A stretch of 64,000 nucleotides of DNA from Acidimicrobiales bacterium (GTDB lineage: Bacteria; Actinomycetota; Acidimicrobiia; Acidimicrobiales; Ilumatobacteraceae): the NCBI GenBank assembly GCA_025463415.1, contig JAOBWO010000169.1:9894-73893 (forward strand), written 5' to 3'. Made by a program: the position numbers and the translations under genes. The stretch's first letter is position 1. Every line of letters begins with the position of its first letter. The notes below the pieces were generated by a model, which had not been told where the DNA came from, did no database searches, and saw only the letters and a list, made by a program, of their open reading frames with translations. Positions 11,388-50,458 of the stretch are shown piece by piece.

Positions 11388-11422
11388 CGCTCGTCGCCTG
11401 AGCGGCCAGCGCTGGAAGATCC

Positions 11423-11455
11423 TCCCAAACCGGACACATCCTGTCCGGTTTGGGA
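11423..11455 (+). terminator. 14-bp perfect hairpin after the membrane-protein gene
   Basis: TCCCAAACCGGACA (11423-11436), loop CATCC, TGTCCGGTTTGGGA (11442-11455). There is no U-tract, so it is either a non-canonical terminator or an RNA-stability element. It overlaps the first candidate start (11450) of the next ORF, which favours the 11471 start. Confidence 0.5.
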
Positions 11456-11470
11456 TGGTCCCATGGGGCC

Positions 11471-34412: not shown

Positions 34413-34413
34413 C

Positions 34414-35142: not shown

Positions 35143-35281
35143 CGATTGCTCCACGGCAGTCTCCTCATCGCACGCACGTCCGGTCACGATCATCTCACCC
35201 TCTCTGCACCGTCTCGACAAGGGCGTTTCCCGCTCCGCTGAGGGAGGCTGGCACCACTCAGGGCCCGGATCATCCACCTGG

Positions 35282-36601
35282 TCACTCCAGCGGTCCGATG
35301 CGGTACGGCTGCACCGCGGTGTCGCGGCCCTTCACCATCTGCGCGTCGAGCCGCTCGTACGCGTCCGGCTTCACCGACAACGCGTCCCACGTCGCCTCGC
35401 TCAGCACCGACTGACCACTGGCCGCGAACTGCTGCAGACGTTGGCAGAGGTTCACGACGTCGCCGACCACGGTGTACTCGGCACGCTCCTCGGACCCCAG
35501 CAGGGCGGCGGCCACCTCCCCCGTCGACACTCCGATCCCGATCGGGAACGGTGGCAACCCGGCCTCGATCCACGAAGCGTTCACCGCGCTCTGGGCACGA
35601 TGCATCGCCGCGATCGCGGCGACCGCGCGATCAGCATGGTCGAGGCTGGGCACCGGCGCACCGAACACGGCCATCACCGCATCGCCGACGTACTGCATCA
35701 CGGTGCCGCCCTCGCCGATGATCGCCCCGTTCATCTCCGCGCGGTGCGTGTTCAACTGACGGGCGAGCGACGACAGGTCGGCGTGCTCCGAGATCGTCGA
35801 GTACCCGCGGATGTCGCTCATCACCACGGTGACGGTCAGCATCTCGGACTCGCCCAGCTCGCGGCCGGACGCCAACAGCTTCTCCGCCAGTCCACCCGGC
35901 AGCAGGCGGGACAACGACTCACCCTGCTCCTCACGGCTGACGATCGCGTCGTGCAGCATGCGCAGTCGCCGTAGGGCTCCCTGCGCCCCGGCCGACGCGC
36001 TGGTGGCCAGGCTCGCGAACAGCAGCTCCACCTCGTGGTTCACCGCGGCCGGCGTGGCCTTGCGCGCCACGGCGATCGCCTTGATCGGCTTGCCCTGGGC
36101 GAGCATGGCCAACAGTGCCTCTTCGTCCGCGGACAGGTCGCCCTTGCGGACGGCCGGCCGCACCATCGCGTCGACGATCGAGGGGTCGAGCACCGACCCG
36201 CCCGTCGCCACCGCCCGGATCGCGGCGACGAGTTGGTCGCCTTCGGCGATGTGGTCCTTGAGCAGATAGGCGTACCCCGCGGCGCCTTCGCTGAGCAGCG
36301 CGATCGCGTAGTCGGGATCATCGAACTGGGAGAGGATCACGATGCCGGTGCCGGGATGTCGCTTGCGGATCTCCTTGCAGCCGTCGATGCCCTCCGACTG
36401 GAACGAGGGCGGCATGCGGATGTCGGACACAACGACGTTCGGCGCCAGGGTGGACGCACCGGCCACGAGGGTGTCGTAGTCGTCGGCCACACCGACGATC
36501 TCGATGTCGGGGTTGCGGGCCAACATCGCGCGCACGCCTTCGCGCACGATGATGTTGTCGTCGGCGAGGAAGACCGTGATGCCGCCGCTGGACTGGTTCA
36601 C
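35282..36601 (-). CDS. response regulator fused to a LuxR-type HTH and a class III nucleotidyl cyclase domain
   Basis: REC is ITVFLADDNIIVREG...VVVSDIRMPPSFQSEG...IVILSQF. The HTH-like segment is LSADEEALLAMLAQGKPIKAIAVARKATPAAVNHEVELLFASL. The cyclase is VTVVMSDIRGYS...VMQYVGDAVMAVFGAP...EYTVVGDVVNLCQRL. GTG start overlaps the upstream stop (GTGA). Confidence 0.85.
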   Translation of the reverse strand: MNQSSGGITVFLADDNIIVREGVRAMLARNPDIEIVGVADDYDTLVAGASTLAPNVVVSDIRMPPSFQSEGIDGCKEIRKRHPGTGIVILSQFDDPDYAIALLSEGAAGYAYLLKDHIAEGDQLVAAIRAVATGGSVLDPSIVDAMVRPAVRKGDLSADEEALLAMLAQGKPIKAIAVARKATPAAVNHEVELLFASLATSASAGAQGALRRLRMLHDAIVSREEQGESLSRLLPGGLAEKLLASGRELGESEMLTVTVVMSDIRGYSTISEHADLSSLARQLNTHRAEMNGAIIGEGGTVMQYVGDAVMAVFGAPVPSLDHADRAVAAIAAMHRAQSAVNASWIEAGLPPFPIGIGVSTGEVAAALLGSEERAEYTVVGDVVNLCQRLQQFAASGQSVLSEATWDALSVKPDAYERLDAQMVKGRDTAVQPYRIGPLE

Positions 36602-37617
36602 CGGTCGATCACGTTCGCGTGCTCACGACGGTGATCGGCCGACAGCCGACGCAGAGCCTCGAGATCCACCGCGGCGGCTGACGCCACGGCGACCTTGCAG
36701 GCAGTGACGGCTCGCAGCGTCGCCGTTCGCCGGCCACCTTCGAGGATCGCCCGCTCTCCGGCCACCGTGCCGGGTCCGAGCTCGGCCAGCTCGCGTCCGT
36801 CCACCTCGAGACCGAGCACTCCGTCGAGGAGGACGAACATCTCGTCGCCCTCGTCACCCTGGTCGACCAACGTCTCGCCGGCTCTGATCCTGCGCACCGT
36901 CGGCTTGGCGCTCCCTCGCATGATCGCGGTGGACAGCTCTCGTTCCAATGCGGTCTCGACGGCCGTCACCAGTGCCGGCGAATCGAGGTCGCCCCAGGGC
37001 GTGTGATCACCGAACGCATCCTTGTACCAGGTCTTGAAATCGATCAGCCCGGTCTTGGCCAGCAGTTGTCCGTCCGTGTCGTACACCCAGTGGCGAGGGA
37101 ATGGACTGGCACCGACGAGCTTGCCCTCGGCGGTGCCGTCGGCGCGGATGGTCAACGCCAGCGTCGACCACGCGATCGGCGCGTGGTACTGGATGAACGG
37201 TGGGCGGCGCACGGTGCGCGGTGCCGGGACGCCGGTCCGTCCACCGGCAGTCTGCAGGAAGCGCACCCATCCCGGCCCGAACTCGGGGTCGGCCTGCTTG
37301 TCGGGAAGCGGCACCGCGGCGATCGAGATGTCCCGACCGAGGCTCAGCGTCGTCGAGCCGAGCAGCCCGCCGCCGGCGTATCCAGCATCGGTGATCCTGC
37401 CGTCGTCGTCGACGTCGATCCATGCATGGAGTTGGTTGGCGAACCGGAACCGATCGGCGACACGCAGTTCCTCCAACGTCGCACCCGGGGTGTCGATCCG
37501 GTCCGGCGGCGCGACGTCGAAGTGGGCCAGGCCCGATCTGAAGGGCAGCTTGGCCAGCCCGGCGATGGCTTCCGACGGGATCCACGAGAGTGCGGTGATC
37601 GATGCAGTGCGGCGCAT
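36598..37617 (-). CDS. cyclic-nucleotide-binding (CAP_ED) protein with uncharacterised ~220-aa N-terminal domain
   Basis: C-terminus RIRAGETLVDQGDEGDEMFVLLDGVLGLEVDGRELAELGPGTVAGERAILEGGRRTATLRAVT carries the phosphate-binding cassette GE...RTA. The N-terminal domain was not recognised. No HTH. Confidence 0.8.
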   Translation of the reverse strand: MRRTASITALSWIPSEAIAGLAKLPFRSGLAHFDVAPPDRIDTPGATLEELRVADRFRFANQLHAWIDVDDDGRITDAGYAGGGLLGSTTLSLGRDISIAAVPLPDKQADPEFGPGWVRFLQTAGGRTGVPAPRTVRRPPFIQYHAPIAWSTLALTIRADGTAEGKLVGASPFPRHWVYDTDGQLLAKTGLIDFKTWYKDAFGDHTPWGDLDSPALVTAVETALERELSTAIMRGSAKPTVRRIRAGETLVDQGDEGDEMFVLLDGVLGLEVDGRELAELGPGTVAGERAILEGGRRTATLRAVTACKVAVASAAAVDLEALRRLSADHRREHANVIDR

Positions 37618-37748: not shown

Positions 37749-40109
37749 GTGCCCGCGCAGTCTCCCGTCGATCTGTGGAGCCGAACCGATCTGCGCGCCC
37801 GATGGAAGTCGTTGGTCGTGCTCGGCATCCTGGCCGGTTTGACGGCAGGGCTGGCGACGGCAGCGTTCGATGGCGCACAGCGCACGGCGACCGCGTTGCA
37901 TCGACTCGAAGCACGCAACAACGCCAGCGACGCTGTGGTGTTCGCCTCGCAGACATCCACCGACAGGCCGTCCTGGACCACGCTGGCCAATCGACCAGAG
38001 GTGGCTCGGATCGCCCGGTGGCGGTTGGCGTTCGGGCTCATCGGTGATTCGTACACGGTGATGTTCGGGCCGAGTGACGACGTGTGGTTGCAACAGGTCG
38101 ACAAGCCGATCGTCGTCGCCGGGAGGATGTTCGATCCGACCAAGCCGAACGAGGTGGTGGTTGACGACCAGGCGGGCGCGGACGCTCCGCCGCTGGGATC
38201 CACCGTGCAGTTCGACACGTTCGGTCCGTACGACCCGTCGGTCGGTGACGTTCCCGGATCGGGACCATCCGTGCAACTGACGGTCGTCGGCGTGGTCCAC
38301 ACGTCGCTCAGCTGGGAGTTCACCAGCGGCGCGTTCGTGTCGCCGGGGTTCTTCGCCGAGTACGGCGAACAGATCGAGTTCGCCGAGAACGGGTTCGTGC
38401 AACTGCGCAACGGCGGCGCGGACATGACGGCCCTGCGTCGTGATGCCAGCCGCGACCTCTTCGCCGGCGTGCCCGTGCTCGATCTGCGCACGACGGCGCG
38501 CCGCGTCACGGCGACGACCGACGTCGAGAAGGCGATGCTGCTGCTCCTGGCGGCGATCGTGGCGTTGGCCGGACTCGTCTTCGTCGGCCAGGCCATCGCC
38601 CGCTCCGCAGCGACGATCGGATCCGATGTGCCGACGCTGCGCGCGCTCGGGATGACACGACGCGAGATGCTGGCTGCAGCGCTTCGCCCGCACGCGCTCA
38701 CGGCGTGCGTCGCTGCACTCGTGCTGGCACTCACGACCGGCATCGCATCTCGATGGTTCCCCGTCGGGCTGGCCGCCCAGGTCGACCCGGCGCGCGGCAT
38801 CCGGATCAACGTCGGACTGATCCTGGTGGCAATGGTCGCGCTCGCCGTGTTGATCACGGCTCAAGCCGCGCTGTCCAGCTGGCTCGCTGCGGCACCGACG
38901 GATGCGAACCGCCCGACACGCGTCTCGCTGCTGACCCGGGTGGGGCTGGTGCGGCCCCTCGCCGTGGGCGTCGGTGTGCGGATGGCGTTGGAGGGGAACC
39001 GCCGCACCGGGCGGGGTGGCTCTCGCTCGGCCCTGGTCGGAGCGGTCGCCGCCATCGCAGGCATCGTCGCGATCATCACGCTCAACCATGGGCTCGACGA
39101 CTCGCTCAGCCACCCACAGGTAGCGGGCGTGGCGTGGGACGTCACCGTCACGCCCGACGCCACGGACACGAGCCTCGAGGGCGTCGATCCGAAGGTGGTC
39201 GACGCTGTCATCGACCAGCCCGGCCTTGCCGCGACGGGCACGATCGGACGCGTGACCGCGCAGATCGGCGACGCGGGCGTGCCGACCTTCACAGTCATCC
39301 CGAGGGGCACGGGTCCACAGATCCAGCTCGTCACCCTGCAGGGCCGGCCACCCGAGGCTGATGACCAGATCGAACTCGGACCGTCGACGGCACGTGACCT
39401 CGGCGTCGGCATCGGCGACACCATCCAGCTCGAGGACGGCCGCGCCGCGCGCGTCGTGGGCCTCGGCCTCTTCCCGTCGGACGTTCACGCCCAGTTCGAC
39501 GAGGGCGCCTGGCTGTCCAACAGCCGATGGTTCGAGCTGCTGAGCCGACAGGACGCCCAGGAGGGTGCGGCGTTCGCGATCGCGGTGCGCTTCGCCGACC
39601 GCGACCACATCGCCGAGCAGACCCAGACGCTCGCGACCGCGCTCGCGCCGGTCGCCTCCGACATCGCGCCGGCCGAGGTGCCGTACGAGCTGAGCAACCT
39701 GCACAACGTGCGTCGCCTGCCCACACTGCTCGCGATCTTCCTGACCGCGCTCGGCGTCGTCGCCGTCGGCCATGCCCTGTTCACCACGGTCCGCCGGCGG
39801 CGCAAGGACTTCGCCGTGATGAGCGCGCTGGGCGTCACCAGAACCGGATCGCGCATCGTGCTGGCCGTGCAGGGATCGACGGTCGCGGTGGTCGGGCTGC
39901 TGTTCGGCGTTCCGCTCGGGTTGCTGGCCGGCCGAGCCGGTTGGCAGGCGATCACCGATCGCGTGCCGCTCACGTTCCGCTCGCCGATCACGTTCGTCGC
40001 GATCCTGCTGATCCTGCCGATCGCGATCGTCGTCGCAAACGCGCTGGCGGTGCTGCCCGGCCATCGCGCCGCCAAGCTCGAACCGGCGCTCATCCTCCGC
40101 TCGGAGTGA
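37749..40109 (+). CDS. ABC transporter permease with two FtsX domains (second copy, no adjacent ATPase)
   Basis: Same architecture as 29923-32373: ...TLRALGMTRREML... and ...MSALGVTRTGSRIVL...LPGHRAAKLEPALILRSE. Start taken at GTG 37749 (VPAQSPVDLWSR); the track ORF starts at 37656. Confidence 0.8.
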   Translation: MPAQSPVDLWSRTDLRARWKSLVVLGILAGLTAGLATAAFDGAQRTATALHRLEARNNASDAVVFASQTSTDRPSWTTLANRPEVARIARWRLAFGLIGDSYTVMFGPSDDVWLQQVDKPIVVAGRMFDPTKPNEVVVDDQAGADAPPLGSTVQFDTFGPYDPSVGDVPGSGPSVQLTVVGVVHTSLSWEFTSGAFVSPGFFAEYGEQIEFAENGFVQLRNGGADMTALRRDASRDLFAGVPVLDLRTTARRVTATTDVEKAMLLLLAAIVALAGLVFVGQAIARSAATIGSDVPTLRALGMTRREMLAAALRPHALTACVAALVLALTTGIASRWFPVGLAAQVDPARGIRINVGLILVAMVALAVLITAQAALSSWLAAAPTDANRPTRVSLLTRVGLVRPLAVGVGVRMALEGNRRTGRGGSRSALVGAVAAIAGIVAIITLNHGLDDSLSHPQVAGVAWDVTVTPDATDTSLEGVDPKVVDAVIDQPGLAATGTIGRVTAQIGDAGVPTFTVIPRGTGPQIQLVTLQGRPPEADDQIELGPSTARDLGVGIGDTIQLEDGRAARVVGLGLFPSDVHAQFDEGAWLSNSRWFELLSRQDAQEGAAFAIAVRFADRDHIAEQTQTLATALAPVASDIAPAEVPYELSNLHNVRRLPTLLAIFLTALGVVAVGHALFTTVRRRRKDFAVMSALGVTRTGSRIVLAVQGSTVAVVGLLFGVPLGLLAGRAGWQAITDRVPLTFRSPITFVAILLILPIAIVVANALAVLPGHRAAKLEPALILRSE

Positions 40110-40124
40110 CCGGCAGCGCGACGC

Positions 40125-40697
40125 TCAGCGGACGAACTGGTCCACGTGGTCGGCGCCGAGGCCGACGTCGGTGTAGTGCCGGCGAGCCAGAGCCAGCTTG
40201 GTGTGCGCATCCTCGTAGCCGATCGGCACGCCGTACGGGTCGACGTAGACGAGCCCGCCGGTGACGTGGAAGAGCGTGATCATCTCGCTCACGTCATCGG
40301 GCACGATCAGCGTGTGCACCTCGCCGGGCGACTCGTAGGCGTAGGTGCCGGTCTCGGCCACCCAGTCGTGCTCGAGGTAGAACCACCGTCCGCGCAAGAC
40401 ATGCGCATGCACGGGACCCGCGTGGCGGTGCCTGCTGAGCACGCCGGAGCGCCGGACCCTGAGCAGGTTGACGTAGTAACCCTGCGACGCCGACAGCAGC
40501 AGCGGCCGGAACGAGACGTGCTCGGATTGCGGCACCCACAACCGCTCGTCGACGTCGTCGAGCAAGCCGGGCACGATGACGTCGGTGGACACATCCGGTG
40601 AGGGCGGCAGTTGGTACGGCATTCGCGCCGTTGCTTCATCTTGCGCAGCAGGCACACCCACGCGCTCTGGCGTGGTCTCTGTCGACGGGTTGGTCAT
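40125..40697 (-). CDS. cupin, 2,4'-dihydroxyacetophenone dioxygenase (DAD)-like family
   Basis: WVPQSEHVSFRPLLLSASQGYYVNLLRVRRSGVLSRHRHAGPVHAHVLRGRWFYLEHDW...GEVHTL. ATG at 40695-40697, 7 nt after the upstream stop. Confidence 0.8.
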   Translation of the reverse strand: MTNPSTETTPERVGVPAAQDEATARMPYQLPPSPDVSTDVIVPGLLDDVDERLWVPQSEHVSFRPLLLSASQGYYVNLLRVRRSGVLSRHRHAGPVHAHVLRGRWFYLEHDWVAETGTYAYESPGEVHTLIVPDDVSEMITLFHVTGGLVYVDPYGVPIGYEDAHTKLALARRHYTDVGLGADHVDQFVR

Positions 40698-40704
40698 CAC
40701 CCCA

Positions 40705-43269
40705 TCATCGCGGTTGCGCCGGCCCACTGCGGCGCCGCCGACCGAGCAGCACTCCAGCCGCTGCCGCGATCACGAGACCGGCCGCGAGGATGATGATGCT
40801 CTGCAGGCCGACACCATCGTCGGGGGCTGATGATCGGGACGCACTGGTTCCGTCCGGGATCGTCAGGTCGCCGGCGGGCAGGGTCGTGGAGAACGACAGG
40901 AACGGGGCGTCGGTCGCGGAAGCCTGGGCCCAGAACTCGGCGGGTTGGATCGTGCCGATGACACGCGGGGCATGCCCATCGGCGATGCCGATCAGCACGA
41001 CGGTCGCCAGCGAGGTCGGCGGCGGCACCGTCAGCTCGACCGTTCCGTCCGCGCCGGGCGTCACCGTGTAGCCGTACGACTGATCCTGGTCGGGCGCCGG
41101 GTAGATCACCTGGGCGTAGACCTGAGCGTCGGGGATCTGGACGTTGTCGGCGTCGTGCAGGTCGATCGTCGCCGTGAACGCCGGCGGGCCGGTGTAGTCG
41201 GTGCGCGGCCGGCGGGGCAGGCTGCACCCGAACCTCGGCTTCTTCAGGCACTGCTCCTGATCGCCGTAACCCGGGTGGGCGGTGGTGCCGACCGTCTCGC
41301 CGGGGTCGAGGTCGAAGTTGCCGTCGGCGTTGTCGAAGAACCCGGAGGTGATGAAGAGCTGGTCGATCGTGTCGTAGCCCTCCACGATCTCGCCGCGGCC
41401 CCCGAATGCGGCCTTCAGCGCCTGATACAGGTCATCGACGTCGAACACGTGACCGGCGGACAGCTCTTTGACGCTGTGGAAGCCGGAGATCGCCGCCCAG
41501 ATCTCCGGCAGCGTGACATCGAACGGTTGTCCCGCCGGGTCGGGCTTCTTCGGTCGACCCTCGCGGATCGTGATCGAGAGATCCTTGTAGGAGAGGCCCT
41601 TCGGCACGACGAGGACGAACAGCCCCTCACCGCCGGATCCGACATCGGCAGGGATCGTCGTGCCGTAGCTGCCATCGAGGATCTGGCCGCCTGTGCCGTA
41701 GAACGCTGCGCCGGCGACGGTGCCGTAGCTGGCGCCCTCGGCAGTCGTGTTGCGGAAGTGGCCGACGATCAACCGTCCCAGCGTCGGATCGGTCACCTCC
41801 GTGTAGCCGGTGACCTTGAACGTGCGCGGCGCTCTCGGCTCGACGGGCGCAGGAGTGATGCTCAGCCGATCCAACCGGACGAGCAGGCTGGCCACGGAGA
41901 GCTCCTCCTGCACCCACGCCTGGTGCGGTTCGGACAGATCCAACCTGCCGCCCTGCCAGCGGTAGAGCTCGGGATCCTCACGATCGACGACGTACTTGTT
42001 GACCATCGAGGACCAGAACTCGGCGAAGCCCTCCGTCCACGAGTCACTGCTCGACGCGTTCGCGTACCCGGCGTGGTTGACGTCAGCAACCCGATCGGGC
42101 AGACCATTGAACGCGCTCGCCAGCACGAAGTGGCCGAACTCGTGGAACTCGCGGTTGTCCGGCCGGTTGGCGCTGTTGAGCCCGCTGTCCCTCGGCGGGA
42201 TCGCGATGTAGGGACGGTCGACGGTGACGGCACCGTCGGACCGACTGCCCTGGAAGAAGGTGCCCGACGTCGCGGTGCATCCCAACGCCGCCGAATCGCA
42301 CCACGCGTCGACCTGCAGCGGCAGCCCGTAGCCGATCGAGATCCCGAGCTGGTCCGCCAGCTCCCACGCTTGATGAATGCCCTGGTAGATCTGCACCACG
42401 GCCGGCCAGTCCGTGATCGGAGCAACCTTGCTGGTGTAGCTCCCCGGGATCCCACGCATGTCGAAGTCGAACCGGCAGTCGCCGTCGTCGGGGATCAGGA
42501 ACGGCTCGGTGTTCAGGATCGGGCCCTTCTGCCGGTAGCCGACGATGAATCGCTGCGGTGAGTGCGTCTGCTCCTCACTGAACAGTGAGACCCGCACCTT
42601 GTCGGTCCGTGGGTCGAAGACGCCACCGGCGGGATCGTCCCCGATCTGGGCGAACGAGTACGACCCGTCGGCCAACGTGGAGGTGTCCAGCTCCAGCCCA
42701 CCCGCCGTCACGTGGATGTGGATGTCGGCAACGGGGTCACCGAAGGCATCGATGACGTTGCCCATGATGCTGCAGGCGGGTGCGTGGGCGTCCAGCGTCG
42801 AGTCGGTCGAGCTGCTCGATCCACTGGTCGCGCCACCGGTCGAGCCGCCGGACCCGCCGGATCCGCCACCGGGTTCGAACACGGTGCAATCCACCGATTG
42901 GGCGTTGCCGAACGAGCTGATCGATCCGCCCTGGGCGGCGAGCCTGGCGCCTGCCGCGGCGCACACCTCGGAGGGCTTCTCGAAGGGACCGGCCGAGAAG
43001 TCGGTTGAGTACCCGAACGTTCCGCCTGTTCCGTCGGACACCAAGATGCCGCCGTTCGCGTCGGGCGGGTTGTTGAAGATGATCAACGCATCGTCCTTCA
43101 CGCCGCCAGACGTCGTGCCGTGCCCGGTGATGTGGATCAGGTACTGCGGGCTCGGGAACGGTCGATCGGGATCGACGGTGCCCGAGGTGGCGAGCGAGGT
43201 GGTGGGTGACACGACGACCGCCGCAAGCGCACCGATCACGATCCAGGTGTGCAGCGGGCGTGGCCTCAC
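40705..43269 (-). CDS. 854-aa secreted, C-terminally membrane-anchored protein with HEFGH zinc-metalloprotease motif
   Basis: Domains in order:
- signal peptide MRPRPLHTWIVIGALAAVVVSPTTSLA
- Gly/Ser linker
- prealbumin-like segment GNVIDAFGDPVADIHIHV...DGSYSF
- HEFGH (nt 42130-42144) followed 33 residues later by WTEGFAEFW (candidate third ligand Glu)
- C-terminal TM IIILAAGLVIAAAAGVLLG plus RRRR
GTG start overlaps the upstream stop. Confidence 0.8.
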   Translation of the reverse strand: MRPRPLHTWIVIGALAAVVVSPTTSLATSGTVDPDRPFPSPQYLIHITGHGTTSGGVKDDALIIFNNPPDANGGILVSDGTGGTFGYSTDFSAGPFEKPSEVCAAAGARLAAQGGSISSFGNAQSVDCTVFEPGGGSGGSGGSTGGATSGSSSSTDSTLDAHAPACSIMGNVIDAFGDPVADIHIHVTAGGLELDTSTLADGSYSFAQIGDDPAGGVFDPRTDKVRVSLFSEEQTHSPQRFIVGYRQKGPILNTEPFLIPDDGDCRFDFDMRGIPGSYTSKVAPITDWPAVVQIYQGIHQAWELADQLGISIGYGLPLQVDAWCDSAALGCTATSGTFFQGSRSDGAVTVDRPYIAIPPRDSGLNSANRPDNREFHEFGHFVLASAFNGLPDRVADVNHAGYANASSSDSWTEGFAEFWSSMVNKYVVDREDPELYRWQGGRLDLSEPHQAWVQEELSVASLLVRLDRLSITPAPVEPRAPRTFKVTGYTEVTDPTLGRLIVGHFRNTTAEGASYGTVAGAAFYGTGGQILDGSYGTTIPADVGSGGEGLFVLVVPKGLSYKDLSITIREGRPKKPDPAGQPFDVTLPEIWAAISGFHSVKELSAGHVFDVDDLYQALKAAFGGRGEIVEGYDTIDQLFITSGFFDNADGNFDLDPGETVGTTAHPGYGDQEQCLKKPRFGCSLPRRPRTDYTGPPAFTATIDLHDADNVQIPDAQVYAQVIYPAPDQDQSYGYTVTPGADGTVELTVPPPTSLATVVLIGIADGHAPRVIGTIQPAEFWAQASATDAPFLSFSTTLPAGDLTIPDGTSASRSSAPDDGVGLQSIIILAAGLVIAAAAGVLLGRRRRSGPAQPR

Positions 43270-45053
43270 GGTGTTGCCAACACCTCGACCTCGGCGACGC
43301 CACCGCAGTCCGGAGAGTCGTGGCCGAGGAAGATGATCTCGACGTAGTGGCCGACGATGTTCGGCAAGGACAGCACGCCGACCTCGTCACCGTCGAGGGT
43401 GAACCGCTGCTCGAAGATCGGTGCGTAGTTGGCGTCGCCGATCCGGATGATCACCGAGCCGAACCCGTACCCCGAGCGCACCGAGCGGTCGGCGTTCTGC
43501 TGGTTGCCGACGATGCGGACTCCACTGATCAGGCGGTCCGCCGCGTCGGGAGGCAACCCCCACAGCAAGGACGAGCACGGGGTCGCTTGATCGCTCGAGC
43601 AGACGGTGTCGCTGTCACCGGCGGAGAACCAAGACGTGGCGGGATCGCCGTCGAAGGCGAGCGCAACGGGAAACTGACCACCGGGGTACTCGGTGGATGC
43701 GATCTCGTTGCCCTGTGCCGCGATGTCGACGAGCCCTGCGGGGATGGGTGGGAGCACGGTGGGCGCCGCCCCAATCGATCCGGTGGTGACGGTGTTCGTC
43801 GGCACCGTGTCCACGGGTGCTGTCGTCACGGGCACGGTCGTCTCCGGCACCGTGGTCGCCGGCACGGTGGTCGCGATGCTCGTCGTCGCAGCGACGGTCG
43901 TAGTCGGCTCGGCGATGGTCGTCGCCACGGCGGTCGGGGGCACCGCTGTCGTCTCGACCGTGGTCGCAGGGACGGTGGAATCGGGCACGCTCGACCCCGG
44001 CACTTGGACGTCGGGACCGCCGGTGGCTCCCGTCGGTCGGTCGATGGTGCCGCCGTTGGGATCGGTCAGCACGAGCGTGTCCACCGGTGCGGGCGCGGGT
44101 GTCACCGTTTGGGTGTTGGCGGGATCGAAGGCCGGCCACTGGGTCCCCGTGTAGACGGGCGGTCCGTCAACCGGCTTCGCCGGCGCGAGTGGGTTGCCAC
44201 ACTTGCAACGAGCTCTCGGCACGCCGAACTGATCGACGAACACCGCCGTGCCGGCCTGGAGCACGACCTGACGGCTGGTCGCGTTGCCGTCCTTGAACCC
44301 GAAGTTCGTCAAACGGGTGTCGGCGCGCAGCAGCACGGGTGTGAGCTGACCGACGTAATCACGGATCTGGCCGACCTCGATGCCTTGTGCTCCGGCCCAC
44401 GCCTTGGCCTTCGCAGGTGTCTCTTCGAGGTAGGAGATCAGCTGCTCGGCGTTGCAGACCTTGTCGTCGCGGGTGCCGCCGTACAGACCCGGTCGGTTGC
44501 CGGGAACGGTCTCGACCGCGGGCGGCTGACCGCCTCCGCCGCCGACCGGACCACCCAGTCCCCCGCCCGACCCGAACGTGGTCAGCGGGGAGGACGTCGC
44601 GAGCGGCAACGTCGTCAGCGGGAGCGTCGCCAATGGGACGGTCGTCGAGCCGAGCACGGTCGAGTTGCTGGATGTCGAGGACGGATCGACCACCGTGGTC
44701 GACCCTCCGCTCGTCGACGATCCGCTCTTCGACGTCGGGAGCACGGTGGTCGTCGTGGAGCTGCTCGGCGGTGAGCTCGTCGAAGTCGTGGCCGCAGCCG
44801 GGTTGGTGGTCACGACGGGCGGGGTGAACGGCGTCGGTCCGACCTCGTCCGCGGGCTCGGTGAAGACCTCCCCGGCATTGGCCTTCTTGTCGTCACCGCT
44901 CGTGACGACGACGCCCACCGCGACAACGACGAGCACGGCACCCACGATCGCCGGCAGCCAGCGCTTCGCGCCCTTGCTCCGCACGGCTGGGTTGTCGGGC
45001 ACCGGCGCAGCGGCAGGCTCCGATGGAAGTTCCGGTGGTGGGAAGTCGCTCAT
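43266..45053 (-). CDS. 595-aa single-pass membrane protein with Cys-containing central domain and C-terminal discoidin/galactose-binding-like domain
   Basis: Domains in order:
- N-terminus MSDFPPPELPSEPAAAP...
- TM WLPAIVGAVLVVVAVGVVV
- S/T-rich linker
- GLYGGTRDDKVCNAEQLISYLEETPAKAKAWAGAQGI (resembles what I remember as DUF6777; unverified)
- T/P/V linker
- C-terminal ...ALAFDGDPATSWFSAG...ISGVRIVGN...HYVEIIFLG...AEVEVLA
ATGA overlap at both ends. Confidence 0.8.
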   Translation of the reverse strand: MSDFPPPELPSEPAAAPVPDNPAVRSKGAKRWLPAIVGAVLVVVAVGVVVTSGDDKKANAGEVFTEPADEVGPTPFTPPVVTTNPAAATTSTSSPPSSSTTTTVLPTSKSGSSTSGGSTTVVDPSSTSSNSTVLGSTTVPLATLPLTTLPLATSSPLTTFGSGGGLGGPVGGGGGQPPAVETVPGNRPGLYGGTRDDKVCNAEQLISYLEETPAKAKAWAGAQGIEVGQIRDYVGQLTPVLLRADTRLTNFGFKDGNATSRQVVLQAGTAVFVDQFGVPRARCKCGNPLAPAKPVDGPPVYTGTQWPAFDPANTQTVTPAPAPVDTLVLTDPNGGTIDRPTGATGGPDVQVPGSSVPDSTVPATTVETTAVPPTAVATTIAEPTTTVAATTSIATTVPATTVPETTVPVTTAPVDTVPTNTVTTGSIGAAPTVLPPIPAGLVDIAAQGNEIASTEYPGGQFPVALAFDGDPATSWFSAGDSDTVCSSDQATPCSSLLWGLPPDAADRLISGVRIVGNQQNADRSVRSGYGFGSVIIRIGDANYAPIFEQRFTLDGDEVGVLSLPNIVGHYVEIIFLGHDSPDCGGVAEVEVLATP

Positions 45054-45739
45054 CGTGGGCCTCTCGTGAGAAGGGATCCGACCTGTTGGGCGATGAACGG
45101 CAGCGCGGCACCCGCGGCGACACCAATCAGCACGACGGGTCTCGTCGGCGCCGCGACCGCGAACTGCTGGACGAGTCCGACGGCTCCGAGACCACCGAGC
45201 GCACCGAGCGCGGTGGGCGCCTTCGGGAACCCGTGCCCTCTCCGGCTGGCGGTCATCGCGACGGCGCCGAGGCCGGCACCGGTCGCGGCGAGCAGGACCC
45301 ATCCTGCGACCGACGAGAACGGACTGCCGGTGATCTGGATCAGCGCGCTGCCGGTGCACGGCGAGGACCCGCCGCTGACGACGTGAACGGCGTACAGCCC
45401 GACCCCGAACCGCGAGTAGTCACCGACAGAGACCTCCTTGGTCCAGCTCGTGCCGTCTGCGTCGCCCTCGCTCACCGTCCAGTTGATGCCGGCGAACCCG
45501 AGCTGGATCTCGTAGTGGCCGATGGGCTCCGCCGATGTGACGGCGATGTCGAGCACGTCATGCGGGCCGACGCGGATCGCATCGTCCGGGTCCGACGCCG
45601 ACCGGGTGGACACGTCGATGCCGTTGGCCGACCCCGTGCAGGGACCCGACGAGGTGGCGGCGGCCGGCGCCGCGCCGGGCAGGGCAAAGGCGACTGCAGC
45701 GATCGTCGCGACTGCGATCGACGTGGCGCGCCGCCTCAC
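45050..45739 (-). CDS. 229-aa secreted/3-TM membrane protein, unknown family
   Basis: GTG start at 45737-45739 overlaps the upstream stop. It has a signal VRRRATSIAVATIAAVAFALPGAAPAAA. A ~110-aa domain is bracketed by GPCTGSA and SPCTGSA. Three Gly/Ala-rich hydrophobic segments follow. Confidence 0.7.
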   Translation of the reverse strand: MRRRATSIAVATIAAVAFALPGAAPAAATSSGPCTGSANGIDVSTRSASDPDDAIRVGPHDVLDIAVTSAEPIGHYEIQLGFAGINWTVSEGDADGTSWTKEVSVGDYSRFGVGLYAVHVVSGGSSPCTGSALIQITGSPFSSVAGWVLLAATGAGLGAVAMTASRRGHGFPKAPTALGALGGLGAVGLVQQFAVAAPTRPVVLIGVAAGAALPFIAQQVGSLLTRGPR

Positions 45740-46044
45740 GGCTCGACCGAATCGGCGAGCAACGAACGCACGGCCTGCTTCCATCGCGCCACATCCGTGC
45801 CGCGGACCGCACCAGGGCACTCGCTGAGCGTGATCCCGTCGTACCGCACCCACCGGCCCGCGTCGAGGTCGAGCAGCAGTGCCTCTCCGTGCCTGCACAC
45901 GAGCCCGAAGTGGAAGAGCGCGTGCCGGAGCTCGTCGTCGGAGAGCAACCCCGCCTGGTGATCGGCGAGGGCTTCGTGGCACGAGGCGAGTGCTTCCGCG
46001 AGAGTTGCCTCGCCGCGCGTGCCGGGTTCGGTGCTGTTGTCCAC
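45736..46044 (-). CDS. 102-aa cytoplasmic protein, unknown family
   Basis: MDNSTEPGTRGEATLAEALASCHEALADHQAGLLSDDELRHALFHFGLVCRHGEALLLDLDAGRWVRYDG... has protein-like composition and G/C-rich third positions. It is translationally coupled to the next gene. Confidence 0.6.
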   Translation of the reverse strand: MDNSTEPGTRGEATLAEALASCHEALADHQAGLLSDDELRHALFHFGLVCRHGEALLLDLDAGRWVRYDGITLSECPGAVRGTDVARWKQAVRSLLADSVEP

Positions 46045-46078
46045 GGCATGAGCGTGAACTCGGCCTGCAAGCGAAGCG

Positions 46079-49000
46079 TCAGCGGGCTTCGACCCGCTCC
46101 ACCAGTTGGGCCAAACCGGGCGCGAGCGGCAGGTCCAACTCGGCCAGCGCGGAGCGACACCGGTTCAGCGCACGACGGGCCGCGTCGAGGTCGTCGAGGC
46201 CGACGAGCGTTGCGATGACGACGCGATGCAGCCCTTCGGACCAGGGCTCCAGCTGCAATCCGCGTTCGGCGATCTCCAACGCGCGGGCGTCGTGCCCGGC
46301 GGCAGCGAGCAGCTCGGCGGCGCGCACGACCGCGACGACGTAGCGCTCCTCCAGCCGACGGATCTGCGTGCCGGCCCAGTCGAGCTCGGCGAGATCGGCC
46401 AGCGGCTCGCCCCGCCACAGGTCGATCGCGACCAGCAGGTGCTCCAGCTCGACCGATGGGATGGCGGCCTGCCGCGCGTCAGCGGCACGGTCGATCGCGT
46501 CGTCGAACTCCCACATGTCGACCGCGAGGTGCTCACCGCCCTCGAGCACGAGGGCTCCCGATTCCTGGCGCACGAACCAGGGCGCGTCGCCCTTCGAACG
46601 TTGCGGCTCCAGCAGCGCCTGGACGTAGCTCAGCGTCATCCGCAAGTTCGCCGAGACGGAGGCTTCGTCGCCATCCGGCCACATCATCAGGCCCGCACGC
46701 TGGCGGCGGACGCGACGGAAGACCGCCAGCGATGCGAGCAACTGGCGGACGCGCACCCGCCGCCAGTTCACGTCCTCGATCACCACTCCGTCGCGCAGGA
46801 GCCGCGGCGGGCCGAGGACCTCGATCCGAACGAGGTGGGCGGGTGGGATCGGCAGCTTCGACAACAAGGTCGTCGCGGTGGACGCCAATGCAGGCTGCTT
46901 CGATCGAACGAGATCGCGCAGCGCACGACGCGTCGCCTCCGGGGCGCAGTCGATCAAGGCCGCGATGCACCGGTCGGAGTCGGCCCCGGGCCGGCCGAGC
47001 CGGACGACGCACTCGACGGCGAGCGGCACACCGAACGCGGCGATCACGACCGGGATCTCGTCGAGCAGCGCCGGGCGCGGGATCGTGTCGATGGTTCCGG
47101 CGCGGCTCGCCAGCAGGGCGCGGGCGAGATCGAGGACGCGCTGCCGAGAGATCCCGCTGGGCACAGCGTCGAGGAGCGCCCGACTGGGGCCGTGGAACAG
47201 GTACGGATGAGCCGGGTACCACCGGACCGCCATCCCGGCACCGACGGGCGTCAGATCGTCGTCCAAGGCATCGGCCAACGCCATCGTTGCGGCGTCCTCG
47301 TCGTGGTCGGCGAGGGCAATCGCCGCAGCCGCGAGGGCACGGAACCCGTCGATCATCCCGCGCCGCGCCGATGGCCTCCGCAGCTCGTCGATCGCGCCGA
47401 GGGCCGCCGCCGCAGTCGCGACGTGGCCGCGGTTGGCCGCGCCGATCGCACCGACGGCGAGGTGCGGCACACGTTCGGACAGCCCGAAGCGCGGTCCGAG
47501 GTCGTTGATCGGCGCCGCCGTGACCGCTGGGAGATCTCCACACGCGAGAGCCACGAACGCCGGCGCGCAGGTGGCCCAGCCGGTCGCGAAGGCGGGCACG
47601 ACGGGGCCACCCAGCTCGGCGAGACGAACTGCGACCTCGCGCGCAGCATCCGCGCGACCGAGGCCCAAGAGCGCGGCGAACCGATAGAAGGCGGGGAAGT
47701 GACGCAGCCGCGGCTCCAACTCGGGCTCGATGTCGGTCATCTCCAGCACATCTTCGAACCGACCCTCCGCATAGGCCCGCCAGACGTCGTTGAGCAACAC
47801 CGTCGCATGGACCGGAACGCCGGCGTCGATCAGCGTGACCCCCCTCGCCCGCGCCATCACCATCCAGTCACGGTCATCGCAGACCACGGCCACCGAGCAG
47901 GCGCGGACCAACGCGGCGACCTCGCTGGCGATGTCGCCACGTGCCGCGAACCCGGTGCAGGCGCTCGAGAACTCCTCGACCACCGACGGCATCCACGTGT
48001 CTCGCGAGCGGTCGATCATCGCGCGCAGGTAGGCCACCTCCGGAGCCTGATCGACACCGGCGGGCAGCAGACCACGCCAGCGCTCCATCACGTCCGCCCA
48101 CGGGGGCGTGGCCTGATCGTTGCACGCGTCGAAGAGCACGGGAAGCGCTGCGTCCCAGTCCTGCGCAGCCGCGAGCAGCTCGAAGGCCGCGACGTTGGCG
48201 CCCTGCTCGCGGAGCGCACGTGCCGCGGCGCGTCGTGCCGACGCGACCTCCTCATCCGTCAATCGCCCGCGCAGCAGATCACTCCACAGCGAGTGCGGCC
48301 TGATCGTCCCGCTCCGATCGACCGACACGAGAGGCAGCGCCGAGAGCTGCTCGCTGTCCACAGTGCCCCCGCAGACCGTGGCGATCGTCGCCGCGCTCCC
48401 GCCGCCGATCGCGACGATCAGCGCGAACTGACGCTGCGCTTCGGGAGGCAACGCGGCGAGCACCTCCTCCGACACGAAGGCAGCTGCGACACCCTCCCCT
48501 GCAACTGCAGTCAGCTCGACCAGCGCCGGCCACCCACCGATGCCGCCCAGGCCTCCGGCATCGATCCCGTGTTCCGATGCGAGCAAGGCGAGCTCGCCGT
48601 CATCCAGGCGGAGATCGTCCTCGTCGATGGAGTCGCATCGTCCGACCGCACGGAGCCGCGACGTGGGCATCGCCACTGCGCGGCGCGAGGTGACGACGAG
48701 ATGACCGTTCGCCGGCAACCGCTCGACCAACTCGGCCAGCACGTGTTCGCCGGCCGAGCCTGCGCTGAGCGCGTGCGCGTCATCGACGGTGAAGCACACC
48801 TGGACGGGTGCGGCCGACCACACCGCCGCGCAGAGCGTGTCGATCGAGCCCTCCGTCTCACCGACCGGCACACCCAGCCCCGCCAGCAGCCCGGCCAGGA
48901 GCGTGGAGGCCGACGCGTCCTCGGGCTGGCAGCCGAGGTAGACATCGCGGCCGCGTGGGTCCAGCGCGTTCTCGGCGATCGCCTGCGCGACGAGCGTCGT

Positions 49001-49135
49001 CTTCCCGAATCCTGCGCCGGCGCTCACCACGATGAGGCGTCGATCGAACCGGGCCGCGAGACGCCCGTGGAGTCGAGGCCGGATGAAGGCTCGCGGCGCG
49101 ACCGGAGGTGGCCAGGATCGAAAGGGTCGCTCCAC
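46079..49135 (-). CDS. STAND-type P-loop ATPase regulator with C-terminal SARP module (winged helix + BTAD)
   Basis: Walker A LIVVSAGAGFGKTTLV lies near the N-terminus, followed by a long helical/TPR-like middle. The C-terminus is VRIEVLGPPRLLRDGVVIEDVNWRRVRVRQLLASLAVFRRVRRQRAGLMMWPDGDE...LRMTLSYVQALL, then DMWEFDDAI...LLVAIDLWRGEPLADL...WAGTQIRRLEERY...LQLEPWSEGLHRVVIATL (BTAD). The start is uncertain (GTG 49135 chosen; the track ORF reaches 49501). Confidence 0.8.
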   Translation of the reverse strand: MERPFRSWPPPVAPRAFIRPRLHGRLAARFDRRLIVVSAGAGFGKTTLVAQAIAENALDPRGRDVYLGCQPEDASASTLLAGLLAGLGVPVGETEGSIDTLCAAVWSAAPVQVCFTVDDAHALSAGSAGEHVLAELVERLPANGHLVVTSRRAVAMPTSRLRAVGRCDSIDEDDLRLDDGELALLASEHGIDAGGLGGIGGWPALVELTAVAGEGVAAAFVSEEVLAALPPEAQRQFALIVAIGGGSAATIATVCGGTVDSEQLSALPLVSVDRSGTIRPHSLWSDLLRGRLTDEEVASARRAAARALREQGANVAAFELLAAAQDWDAALPVLFDACNDQATPPWADVMERWRGLLPAGVDQAPEVAYLRAMIDRSRDTWMPSVVEEFSSACTGFAARGDIASEVAALVRACSVAVVCDDRDWMVMARARGVTLIDAGVPVHATVLLNDVWRAYAEGRFEDVLEMTDIEPELEPRLRHFPAFYRFAALLGLGRADAAREVAVRLAELGGPVVPAFATGWATCAPAFVALACGDLPAVTAAPINDLGPRFGLSERVPHLAVGAIGAANRGHVATAAAALGAIDELRRPSARRGMIDGFRALAAAAIALADHDEDAATMALADALDDDLTPVGAGMAVRWYPAHPYLFHGPSRALLDAVPSGISRQRVLDLARALLASRAGTIDTIPRPALLDEIPVVIAAFGVPLAVECVVRLGRPGADSDRCIAALIDCAPEATRRALRDLVRSKQPALASTATTLLSKLPIPPAHLVRIEVLGPPRLLRDGVVIEDVNWRRVRVRQLLASLAVFRRVRRQRAGLMMWPDGDEASVSANLRMTLSYVQALLEPQRSKGDAPWFVRQESGALVLEGGEHLAVDMWEFDDAIDRAADARQAAIPSVELEHLLVAIDLWRGEPLADLAELDWAGTQIRRLEERYVVAVVRAAELLAAAGHDARALEIAERGLQLEPWSEGLHRVVIATLVGLDDLDAARRALNRCRSALAELDLPLAPGLAQLVERVEAR

Positions 49136-49250
49136 GCGCGGCGATGCTAACCCCGTTGGATCGGGGCCTGGACCGGACCGCGTCGTCGTGGACAGGGGCG
49201 GAACCCGACCGTCGGACTCCCGTCGCACCCGGACCGCTACCGTCGTGGGC

Positions 49251-49910
49251 GTGAGTGATGCGACGCACCTGAGCCGGACCCAGGCCACGTACGACGCCGT
49301 CGCGGAGGTGTACGCAGAACGAATCGGCGGCGAGCTGGCGGACAAGCCGCTGGACCGTGGTCTGCTCCAGGCGTTCGCGGATCTGGTCGCCGAGGGCGGC
49401 GGCGGCCGCGTGGCCGACATCGGTTGCGGACCGGGCCACGTCACCGCCCACCTCGCCGGGCTCGGCATGGATGCCTTCGGGATCGACCTCTCCCCCGGCA
49501 TGTTGGCGGTCGCCCGAGCGAGCCATCCCCAGCTGCGGTTCGAGCAGGGCTCGATGCTCGACCTCCCGCTCGCCGATGCTCACCTCGCGGGCATCGTCGC
49601 GCTGTACTCGATCATCCACATGCCGGCGGACCGACTGCCAACAGTCTTCGCCGAGTTCGCTCGGGTGCTGGCCCCCGGCGGGCACCTGCTGCTGGCGTTC
49701 CAGGCCGGCGACGACGACCACACGCATCTCACCCGGGCCTTCGACCAAGCAGTGGACATCGACGCCTATCGCTGGTCACCCGAGCACATCGCCGAACGCC
49801 TCGTGGACGCCGGGCTGCACGTGACGATGCAGATGGTCCGCGATCCGGGAGCGCAGGAGTCCGCTCGGCGCGCCTACCTCATGGCTCGCGTGCCCGAGGA
49901 CGCGCGATGA
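49251..49910 (+). CDS. class I SAM-dependent methyltransferase
   Basis: RVADIGCGPGHVTAHL...GIDLSPGML...IVALYSIIHM...LAPGGHLLLAF. GTG start at 49251. Confidence 0.85.
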   Translation: MSDATHLSRTQATYDAVAEVYAERIGGELADKPLDRGLLQAFADLVAEGGGGRVADIGCGPGHVTAHLAGLGMDAFGIDLSPGMLAVARASHPQLRFEQGSMLDLPLADAHLAGIVALYSIIHMPADRLPTVFAEFARVLAPGGHLLLAFQAGDDDHTHLTRAFDQAVDIDAYRWSPEHIAERLVDAGLHVTMQMVRDPGAQESARRAYLMARVPEDAR

Positions 49911-50458
49911 GCGACGACGAGGATCGCGACGGGTTGATCGTCCTCCGCGCGAGCGCGGGGCGATGGGTCTGGACCCTCATCGGAAGCCTCGCGTTCGCGA
50001 TGTTCGGCGGGGCGATGATCCTCAGCGGGCGCACGGGTGCGGTGGCCAAGGGCATCGGTGTCGTCCTGCTCGCGCTGTTCGGGTTCTGCGCCGTCGTCGC
50101 GCTGCGTGAGATGCGCGCGCCAGGGTCGCTGATGCTGAGCCGTCACCAGATGAACATCGTCAGCCGCGGTCGACTCACCACCTTCGCGCTGGCCGAGTGC
50201 AGCCGATTCTCGACGTGGCGCAACCCGAGCCGAGGCAGCACCCACGTCGTGTTCGATTACGCGGGCGACCCGGACACCGAGGTGAGCCGCACCAATCGCA
50301 GGTTGATGGGCGGTTCGCGCTCGCTCCACGAGAGCTACGGCGTGTCCACCGAGTCGTTGGTCGATCTGCTGAACGAGGCCCGCACGGCCGGTCTGTCCGG
50401 TGACGGGGACGAGGCGCTCGGGACGGACGATCTGGACGAGACGGACGATCTCGACTGA
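49907..50458 (+). CDS. two-TM membrane protein with acidic C-terminal tail, unknown function
   Basis: ATGA overlap with the methyltransferase. TM segments are WVWTLIGSLAFAMFGGAMIL and GIGVVLLALFGFCAVVAL. The tail is ...GDGDEALGTDDLDETDDLD. Confidence 0.65.
   Translation: MSDDEDRDGLIVLRASAGRWVWTLIGSLAFAMFGGAMILSGRTGAVAKGIGVVLLALFGFCAVVALREMRAPGSLMLSRHQMNIVSRGRLTTFALAECSRFSTWRNPSRGSTHVVFDYAGDPDTEVSRTNRRLMGGSRSLHESYGVSTESLVDLLNEARTAGLSGDGDEALGTDDLDETDDLD

Follow-up and report, generated by a model that had tools for sequence, protein, structure and literature searches.

A conserved operon of four overlapping genes in Acidimicrobiia encodes a putative membrane-anchored zinc metallopeptidase and a DUF6777/discoidin-like protein downstream of a STAND-SARP regulator

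The 64,000-nt stretch of Acidimicrobiales DNA analyzed here (further referred to as the window) has a GC content of about 69% throughout. On its minus strand it carries four genes, each overlapping the next, which are denoted g102, g229, g595 and g854 according to the number of amino acids (aa) in their products. Together they constitute a genuine operon, whose conservation extends over a small group of Acidimicrobiia from soil. In our preferred reading, to which we assign a probability of roughly 0.4, the operon would be activated by the product of the adjacent STAND-SARP gene and, expressed as a coupled unit, would install a gluzincin-type protease beside a DUF6777/lectin protein, a membrane adaptor and a cytoplasmic partner.

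Protein homologues were collected by word-indexed protein searches, in the case of g229 among 5.8 billion clusters. The protease profile was scanned over 185,579 species genomes, yielding 53 loci, and the g229 profile was scanned over metagenomes, yielding nine. The collected loci were then compared locally by hidden Markov model (HMM) searches. Below, compared loci are labeled L### and compared proteins P####. The readings proposed here are based on sequence, mostly that of metagenome-assembled genomes.

The four minus-strand open reading frames (ORFs) listed in a preliminary description of this DNA were all found where it had placed them (Table 1). In each of them the GC content is 0.84–0.87 at third codon positions (GC3) and 0.50–0.61 at second codon positions (GC2). 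Since such GC3 values are expected for the host genome, we consider all four to be real genes. Reading of the junctions reproduced the described start/stop overlaps, which are GTGA at 45736–45739 (g102/g229), ATGA at 45050–45053 (g229/g595) and GTGA at 43266–43269 (g595/g854), as well as the distances of 34 nt between the stop codon of the STAND gene and g102 and of 7 nt between g854 and the ATG of a cupin gene. The topologies proposed earlier for the four proteins agree with hydropathy and cysteine positions. The g854 product is identical to a GenBank protein (locus tag JWN62_1684) from an Acidimicrobiales metagenome-assembled genome. In GenBank, g229 starts at an ATG located 15 codons upstream, which gives a protein of 244 aa (P0014). 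The 229-aa variant starting at GTG is preferred here, because the N-termini of homologues align with this GTG and the 4-nt overlap is conserved; in four relatives, an ATG lies precisely within the 4-nt overlap at the g229 start.

The four genes were also said to form a coupled unit beside a dedicated STAND/SARP regulator. When other loci were checked, the genes were found to co-occur, and relatives sharing as little as about 52–60% identity retain both the gene order and the overlaps. The order STAND, g102, g229, g595, g854 seen in the window is found in L004 (87% identity) and in L062 (~60% identity; the contig ends inside g854). The same order, cut by contig ends, is seen in L058, L059, L061, L063 and L064. 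In L001/L005 (~52% identity), g102 is followed at some distance by g229, g595 and g854, and the STAND gene is not adjacent. Wherever both genes of a junction are present, the 4-nt overlap is kept, and this holds for all three junctions; matching overlaps at matching junctions were observed in L004, L062, L058, L061, L063, L001, L003 and L057. In high-GC operons a 4-nt overlap is nothing unusual and occurs irrespective of complex formation by the products. The overlaps described here are considered to go beyond chance because they recur at the same junctions in eight loci.

Partial sets are also found. A protein with the DUF6777 domain of g595 is encoded together with a protease of the g854 family, without g102 or g229, in L002/L007 and in L014; in the latter the two genes are divergently oriented and the protease is 36% identical to g854. 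The same pair is present in L003, where the contig begins within the DUF6777 gene and upstream genes cannot be judged. L057 contains g229 and the DUF6777 protein without the protease. Overall, DUF6777/discoidin genes adjoin the protease gene in five lineages, L014 among them.

The HEFGH sequence noticed earlier in the large protein proved to be an intact zincin motif, invariant across the family. The g854 protein consists, in this order, of a signal peptide, a domain with the "HITGHGT" motif, a beta-sandwich resembling CarboxypepD_reg (a sub-threshold match in Pfam), the catalytic domain, beta domains and, by hydropathy, a C-terminal transmembrane (TM) segment at 825–843 followed by GRRRR. The catalytic domain contains HEFGH 376–380, H399, E413/E417 and Y436. 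Two alignments were used, A1 with 11 full-length homologues and A3 with 31 catalytic domains of bacteria and archaea having 27–57% identity. H376, E377 and H380 are invariant in all sequences of both alignments, and E413, G414 and E417 of the EGFAEF motif in all 31 catalytic domains. The elements invariant in the family are P-D-N-R-E-x-H-E-x-x-H, an N-H-x-G loop, E-G-F-A-E-F, a Tyr and an E-E pair. The full-length homologues also share eight invariant cysteines, which is consistent with an extracytoplasmic location. In the AlphaFold2 (AF2) model of g854, the mean predicted local distance difference test score (pLDDT) is 69.7 and reaches about 80–90 in the catalytic region, where a helix and a three-strand sheet are followed by the HExxH helix (373–387), a loop and the EGFAEF helix (407–428). 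As modeled, this helix-sheet-helix-helix arrangement is the zincin layout. Judging by the conserved motifs and the model, g854 is most likely a membrane-anchored putative zinc metallopeptidase of the gluzincin-like type.

The g854 family is real, moderately sized and uncurated. In a HMMER search against 1.84 billion cluster representatives it contained 1,100 proteins at E ≤ 1e-3 and 678 at E ≤ 1e-10, spanning Acidimicrobiia, Chloroflexota and archaea. No peptidase family was matched by g854 itself (Pfam, NCBIfam), by six distant relatives at E up to 10 or by 44 representatives, and the profiles of A1 and A3 had no match among PDB sequences. Accessory domains in the 44 representatives include TIG, Laminin_G_3, DUF11, SdrD_B and F5/8-type domains; with its TIG, Laminin_G_3, DUF11 and F5/8-type accessories the family resembles secreted or surface hydrolases. 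On g854 the Gram_pos_anchor and TIGR01167 models remained below their cut-offs and covered only the TM segment and the RRRR tail. Neither LPXTG nor LAXTG was found in g854, where ...SAPDDGVGLQS precedes the TM segment, and A1 likewise shows no conservation of such a pentapeptide.

Several further features of this family were observed. The "HITGHGT" domain (aa 35–130, window positions 42880–43165) has invariant His, Gly and Thr residues and is confined to close full-length homologues, mainly from Acidimicrobiia; distant relatives match g854 only from about aa 140–165 on. It also occurs alone in other proteins (P0281, P0283, P0287, P0295, P0298) and could be a prodomain. In Dehalococcoidia and some Acidimicrobiia, the protease gene is followed by a gene for a ~430-aa protein with an N-terminal double zinc ribbon, which replaces the DUF6777 gene and overlaps the 3' end of the protease gene (11869–13161 in L009, 11784–13079 in L011, also L010 and L013). 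A locus of Altiarchaeia (L040, 8798–14637) encodes two tandem paralogues of the family, each with a C-terminal TM segment and a lysine tail.

The g595 product is a type II membrane protein with a conserved cytoplasmic tail, a TM segment at 33–51 and Ser/Thr/Pro linkers. The tail is strongly conserved (HMM E ~1e-38 over 80 aa). The central domain is DUF6777 (PF20568), matched at aa 182–341 with 194 bits against a cut-off of 27. In other Actinomycetota, DUF6777 proteins are usually membrane proteins of about 300 aa and mostly stand alone; the domain was found in Streptomyces, Kitasatospora, Pseudonocardia, Actinomadura and Acidimicrobiia. The AF2 model of DUF6777, built from a 53-sequence alignment, has pLDDT 91.7 and a predicted template modeling score (pTM) of 0.87. 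In a Foldseek search of PDB it had no neighbor (best E 0.45, template modeling score 0.21), and the ectodomain appears to represent a new fold. A literature search on DUF6777 found no papers. The discoidin/CBM32-like domain proposed for the C-terminus (~aa 445–595) holds for the homologues, all six of which match F5_F8_type_C (best E 3e-7), whereas g595 itself scores 17.6 bits against a cut-off of 28.2 (E 0.004). The C-terminal domain also weakly matches CBM32 domains of chitosanases in PDB (E 0.07).

The g229 product has a signal peptide and, according to hydropathy and cysteine positions, an extracytoplasmic domain of about 110 aa between Cys34 and Cys128, followed by TM-like segments at ~144–162 and 195–220; a weaker Gly/Ala-rich segment at ~176–194 would be the third, placing the C-terminus in the cytoplasm. 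Only 17 homologues were found in the clusters searched. Both cysteines and the motif DYSxFGVGLYxV are conserved in their alignment (A2), and g229, which has no match in Pfam or PDB, represents an orphan family. The product of g102, the first gene of the operon, is an acidic cytoplasmic protein without hydrophobic segments and represents another orphan family, with no match in Pfam, NCBIfam or PADLOC. Its sole non-orthologous matches among 11,483 ORFs are two 181-aa proteins of Streptomycetaceae encoded beside DUF6777, to whose C-terminal half it is weakly similar (E 0.002 and 0.02). This link is marginal by score and draws partly on gene context.

Indirect support for physical association of the parts comes from rearrangements among the relatives. 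In L057 (GCA_009886115.1, 10001–12507), which has neither a protease gene nor g102, the g229 homologue ends after the first TM segment, and the hairpin formed by the second and third TM segments starts the DUF6777/discoidin protein instead (40% identity, E 5e-12). The topologies of g229 and of the DUF6777 protein both allow such a fusion. Further, an SH3-like module CSNGWTAWVDGRPL (...G-W-x-R-V-x-C-S-N-G-W-T-A-W-V-D-G-R-P-L) recurs in varied positions across variants of the system. It is found on the cytoplasmic C-termini of g229 homologues (L063, L064, L060) and of one protease homologue (P0010). In L001 and L064 it forms a gene of its own, located between g102 and g229, and in L002 (12658–13653) and L006 a protein whose gene is coupled to the protease gene on its downstream side contains it twice. 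In L072 (3122–3667) and L073 (4095–4640) it is joined to a g102-like domain next to DUF6777. The module is absent from the operon in the window. Taken as sequence patterns, the fission and fusion in L057 and the recurrent SH3-like tails are suggestive of contacts between the corresponding proteins.

Two other candidate links were rejected. A 1474-aa protein (P0006) joining DUF6777 to the HEFGH protease was discarded as Rosetta-stone evidence, being a frameshift artefact: at 11297–11750 of its source (L001/L005, contig_46406) the discoidin domain is split over two frames, 11297–11500 and 11487–11741, and therefore a single indel merged two overlapping genes. In this contig, a split across frames likewise affects the SH3-like gene that lies between g102 and g229. 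Homology of g102 to the SH3-like tails was not found, and the two are linked only by the fusion in Streptomycetaceae. The latter belongs to a cluster encoding an FHA-FHA-ABC transporter, the 181-aa SH3-like/g102-like protein, a Ser/Thr kinase and a DUF6777 protein, which was found in two genera: in Streptomyces silvisoli (L072, 743–5903) and in Streptantibioticus rubrisoli (L073, 1714–6912). The cluster is reminiscent of the Rv1747–PknF pair of Mycobacterium tuberculosis.

The STAND gene lies directly upstream of g102 in L004, L058, L059, L061, L062 and L063. Its 1140-aa ORF in the window is over-extended, the first ~122 codons (49135–49501) being spurious. The phase of GC3 switches near 49150–49200, and homologues of the regulator start with VERPFR..., which corresponds to GTG 49135. 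A plus-strand gene for a class I S-adenosylmethionine-dependent methyltransferase (49239–49910) overlaps the spurious extension. Because of the GC3 frame plot, the methyltransferase gene and the start of the homologues, we conclude that the regulator probably starts at GTG 49135 and has 1018 aa. In the numbering of the 1140-aa ORF, it contains a P-loop (GAGFGKTT), a Pfam AAA_22 match at 152–261 (E 3.8e-7) and a BTAD domain (PF03704) at 994–1137 (E 1.9e-13, 51.5–55.3 bits against a cut-off of 22.1). Between the P-loop and the C-terminal module lies a helical repeat region, and weak matches to NACHT and TPR were obtained. NCBIfam gave a weak match to the N-terminus of MalT (E 3e-6), and a match to nSTAND_NTPase5 was very weak (E 0.095). 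In PDB, EmbR was matched weakly (E 0.056), only the BTAD part being aligned. The segment at about aa 895–990 looks SARP-like by eye, and a winged helix may precede BTAD.

Alignment of the spacers between the regulator gene and g102 from seven loci revealed a repeat box. In the window, CGCTGACGCTT is followed by CGCTTGCAGGC, with the heptamers CGCTGAC and CGCTTGC separated by a 4-nt spacer. Counted from the g102 start codon, the box occupies −40 to −19, and its first repeat includes the TGA stop codon of the regulator gene. Most loci have CGCTGAC-N4-CGCTTGC, L001 and L064 have the perfect repeat CGCTTGC-N4-CGCTTGC, and the variant in L062, L058 and L059 differs at one base. The pattern CGCT[GT][AG]C-N4-CGCTTGC occurs eight times in the 935 kb of collected loci, with 0.07 occurrences expected, and seven of the eight are located 22–23 nt upstream of a g102 start. 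Orthologues of g102 follow the box in nine loci, and its distance of 22–23 nt from the g102 start is constant throughout the related loci. In the window, no second operator was accepted, as only two-mismatch matches at chance level were obtained. In L061, five tandem TGACGC units lie upstream of the box.

The box recognized by AfsR, the afs box, also spans −40 to −19, and the −10 element of afsS is a weak CACTGT (PMC10936776); heptamer repeats with 4-nt spacers are the operator form of SARP and SARP-LAL regulators (PMC5930380). Because its geometry matches both the afs box and the heptamer/spacer rule, the box is a predicted SARP operator. A −10-like hexamer, CACGCT, occupies −12 to −7 with respect to the GTG of g102, and L004, L062 and L061 have CACGCT or CACCCT in the equivalent position. 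By sequence reading there is no Shine-Dalgarno sequence before g102. Given this and the position of the box, the transcript may be leaderless or nearly so. A SARP-activated promoter producing leaderless or near-leaderless mRNA would be the simplest reading of this region.

Table 1. Features of the operon region, in window coordinates
Feature	Position	Strand	Basis
STAND-SARP regulator, ~1018 aa (probable start)	46079..49135	−	Pfam, GC3 frame plot, homologue start
Putative SARP operator, two 11-nt direct repeats	46063..46084	−	Alignment of seven loci
−10-like hexamer CACGCT (−10 role predicted)	46051..46056	−	Sequence reading
g102, 102 aa	45736..46044	−	ORF, GC3, orthologues
g229, 229 aa	45050..45739	−	ORF, GC3, hydropathy, Cys positions
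g595, 595 aa	43266..45053	−	ORF, GC3, PF20568
g854, 854 aa	40705..43269	−	ORF, GC3, alignments A1 and A3
ChrR-type cupin, 190 aa	40125..40697	−	Cupin_7, 62 bits

According to the preferred reading, the regulator gene and the operon make up one regulatory and structural unit of five genes. The STAND-SARP protein would bind the 22-bp box overlapping its own stop codon and activate the promoter, and a leaderless transcript would start at or beside the GTG of g102. The four genes would be translated as a coupled chain via the 4-nt overlaps, and their products would assemble at the cytoplasmic membrane. There, g854 would act as an outward-facing, C-terminally anchored zinc metallopeptidase, in which the zinc would be held by H376 and H380, with E413 or E417 on the following helix as third ligand and E377 as catalytic base. 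The g595 protein would present DUF6777 and the lectin domain on long Ser/Thr/Pro stalks, bringing glycosylated or glycan-associated substrates from the envelope or the environment to the protease. The g229 product would serve as a three-helix membrane adaptor packing against g595, and g102 as a cytoplasmic partner of their short cytoplasmic tails.

Several results weigh against this proposal. In 46 of the 53 genome loci, from Dehalococcoidia, other Chloroflexota, DPANN, Altiarchaeota, Bathyarchaeia and Hyphomonas, the protease family occurs without g102, g229 or DUF6777, and all four genes together were observed in no more than four distinct lineages, each of them metagenomic. The set is modular, rare and not obligate. 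A Foldseek search with the whole g854 chain against PDB and BFVD returned transthyretin/CarboxypepD_reg-like beta-sandwiches only and no zincin, so that it gives no information on the catalytic domain; hhalign of A3 with the catalytic region of Escherichia coli PepN gave a probability of 0.1. The g595 protein itself falls below the threshold for a discoidin domain. In the regulator, no Trans_reg_C winged helix was matched in Pfam at E up to 10, and the SARP module is C-terminal, unlike the N-terminal module of described SARPs. No consensus sigma-70 promoter was found in 39500–50500. Finally, the context of DUF6777 in Streptomycetaceae, with a kinase and an FHA-ABC transporter in place of the protease, speaks as much for signalling or envelope export as for proteolysis.

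The main alternative is trans-envelope signalling. Here g595 and g229 would sense a glycan of the envelope or the surroundings, g854 would cleave one of them as a site-1-type protease, and g102 would relay the signal through the cytoplasm to the sensor region of the STAND protein, whose SARP module would then activate the operon, closing a positive feedback loop. STAND proteins are ligand-gated switches, and the regulator has a MalT-like N-terminus. Such a pathway would also fit with the strongly conserved cytoplasmic tail of g595, with the constant position of g102 directly after the operator, with the SH3-like and g102-like cytoplasmic modules that travel with DUF6777, and with the clustering of DUF6777 with the kinase and the transporter in two genera of Streptomycetaceae. 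We nevertheless regard it as rather unlikely. Scans with Pfam and NCBIfam revealed no anti-sigma, kinase or receiver domain in the operon, and neither a cleavage site nor a site-2 protease was identified. Moreover, most loci with the protease family lack these partners, and the similarity of g102 to the proteins of Streptomycetaceae is marginal.

The genes may also be co-transcribed without their products forming a complex. In that case g854 would be a free-standing surface protease acting in nutrient acquisition or in maturation of surface proteins, like its relatives in Chloroflexota and archaea, and the others would be independent envelope proteins that share its regulator. The 46 loci with the protease family alone, the commonness of 4-nt overlaps in high-GC operons and the mostly stand-alone DUF6777 proteins of other Actinomycetota all speak for this possibility. 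It does not readily explain why DUF6777 and the protease are adjacent even in the distant lineage L014, where their genes are divergent, why the DUF6777 protein of L057 includes the hairpin of g229, why g229 and protease homologues carry the same SH3-like tail, or why the overlaps are conserved at all three junctions, and we consider it unlikely. Anti-phage defence or toxin delivery built around the STAND NTPase, which might be suspected from the adjacency of this gene, its very weak nSTAND_NTPase5 match and the patchy distribution of the family, is highly improbable: a PADLOC search with six proteins gave nothing at E ≤ 0.1, domains of nucleases, toxins or immunity proteins were not found, the C-terminal module of the STAND protein is that of a transcription activator, for which a matching predicted operator is present, and the GC content is flat across the region.

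The cupin gene that follows g854 was correctly placed in the preliminary description and was differently typed there. According to Pfam it is a ChrR-type cupin (Cupin_7); only this domain is present, TIGR02451 scoring 13 bits against a cut-off of 124.5, and scans with Pfam and NCBIfam did not reveal the N-terminal zinc-binding anti-sigma domain of ChrR anti-sigma factors. The gene adjoins the operon only in L004 (93% identity of the cupin), the relative that is 87% identical, and was rejected as a member of the system for this reason. A scan of 39500–50500 for consensus promoters and terminators gave no sites, including the interval between g854 and the cupin gene. The cupin gene is probably co-transcribed with the operon and stays outside the conserved set.

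Other neighbors are unrelated (a methyltransferase, an FtsX-type permease, a cyclase, an AlaX-like protein and a P450), and a larger biosynthetic or envelope cluster was rejected. Downstream, at 32370–37617 of the window, lie genes for a GAF histidine kinase, an ABC ATPase, a response-regulator/adenylate cyclase fusion and a cyclic-nucleotide-binding protein. This run is not conserved together with the operon.

More broadly, and with some doubt, we suggest that the operon might represent a variant of a hitherto undescribed trans-envelope system of actinobacteria, defined by a DUF6777 ectodomain and a dedicated cytoplasmic layer of g102-like and SH3-like modules. Such a system would be combined with the new gluzincin and the STAND-SARP switch in Acidimicrobiia and with a Ser/Thr kinase and an FHA-ABC exporter in Streptomycetaceae, and would link glycan recognition and proteolysis at the cell surface to cytoplasmic regulation. 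If the proposals made here are true, g854 defines a new uncurated zinc peptidase family with about 1,100 cluster representatives in Acidimicrobiia, Chloroflexota and several archaeal phyla, and the operon provides the first functional context for DUF6777, which is widespread in Actinomycetota including Streptomyces. SARP-type activation would then extend beyond antibiotic clusters to an envelope operon, by means of a C-terminal SARP module. Acidimicrobiia are abundant in soil and water and almost uncultured, with few experimental handles, and a regulated module of a surface protease and a lectin would be a starting point for studies of their envelope biology.

Comparison with known systems places the protease closest to the gluzincins. 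Members of this group (clan MA(E), including M1 aminopeptidase N, M9 collagenases and Peptidase_MA_2) carry the signature HExxH ... EG-A-E-[FY]. Like them, g854 has HExxH on a helix followed by a helix with an invariant Glu (EGFAEF), a downstream Tyr and a preceding beta-sheet. It differs from them in the His-Glu spacing of 32 residues (H380 to E413), in the extra invariant NHxG(Y) loop of its family and in the lack of HMM matches to curated peptidase families or PDB sequences. Glycoprotein-targeting zinc peptidases of the M60-like/enhancin type carry CBM32 or CBM51 modules. The operon similarly pairs a predicted extracytoplasmic zinc peptidase with a putative discoidin/CBM32-type domain, which suggests glycan-guided proteolysis. 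Unlike in the M60-like enzymes, the lectin domain resides here on a separate, presumably co-translated membrane protein, the 32-residue spacing of g854 lies outside HEXXHX(8,28)E, and no M60-like family of Pfam is matched.

The regulator resembles AfsR and the SARP-LAL protein PimR in combining an NTPase, helical repeats and a BTAD-containing activator module. Its presumed target is an envelope operon, as opposed to a biosynthetic cluster. The box shares with the AfsR promoter the two direct repeats with 11-bp periodicity, the location and a weak −10-like element, and differs from known SARP operators in its heptamer, CGCTTGC as opposed to TCGAGXX or CGGCAAG. As in the cluster of Streptomycetaceae, a DUF6777 membrane protein is encoded together with a g102-like cytoplasmic domain, and the SH3-like module is common to that cluster and the relatives of the operon; the cluster lacks the HEFGH protease, g229, the discoidin domain and the STAND-SARP regulator and has kinase/FHA signalling instead. 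That the set could not be assigned to any secretion, pilus, sortase, S-layer or defence system in the preliminary description is in line with the absence of PADLOC matches and LPXTG motifs and with DUF6777 being the sole Pfam/NCBIfam family identified. Nothing in the set belongs to a described system, and its building blocks, a zincin, a lectin domain and a SARP/STAND regulator, are familiar in kind.

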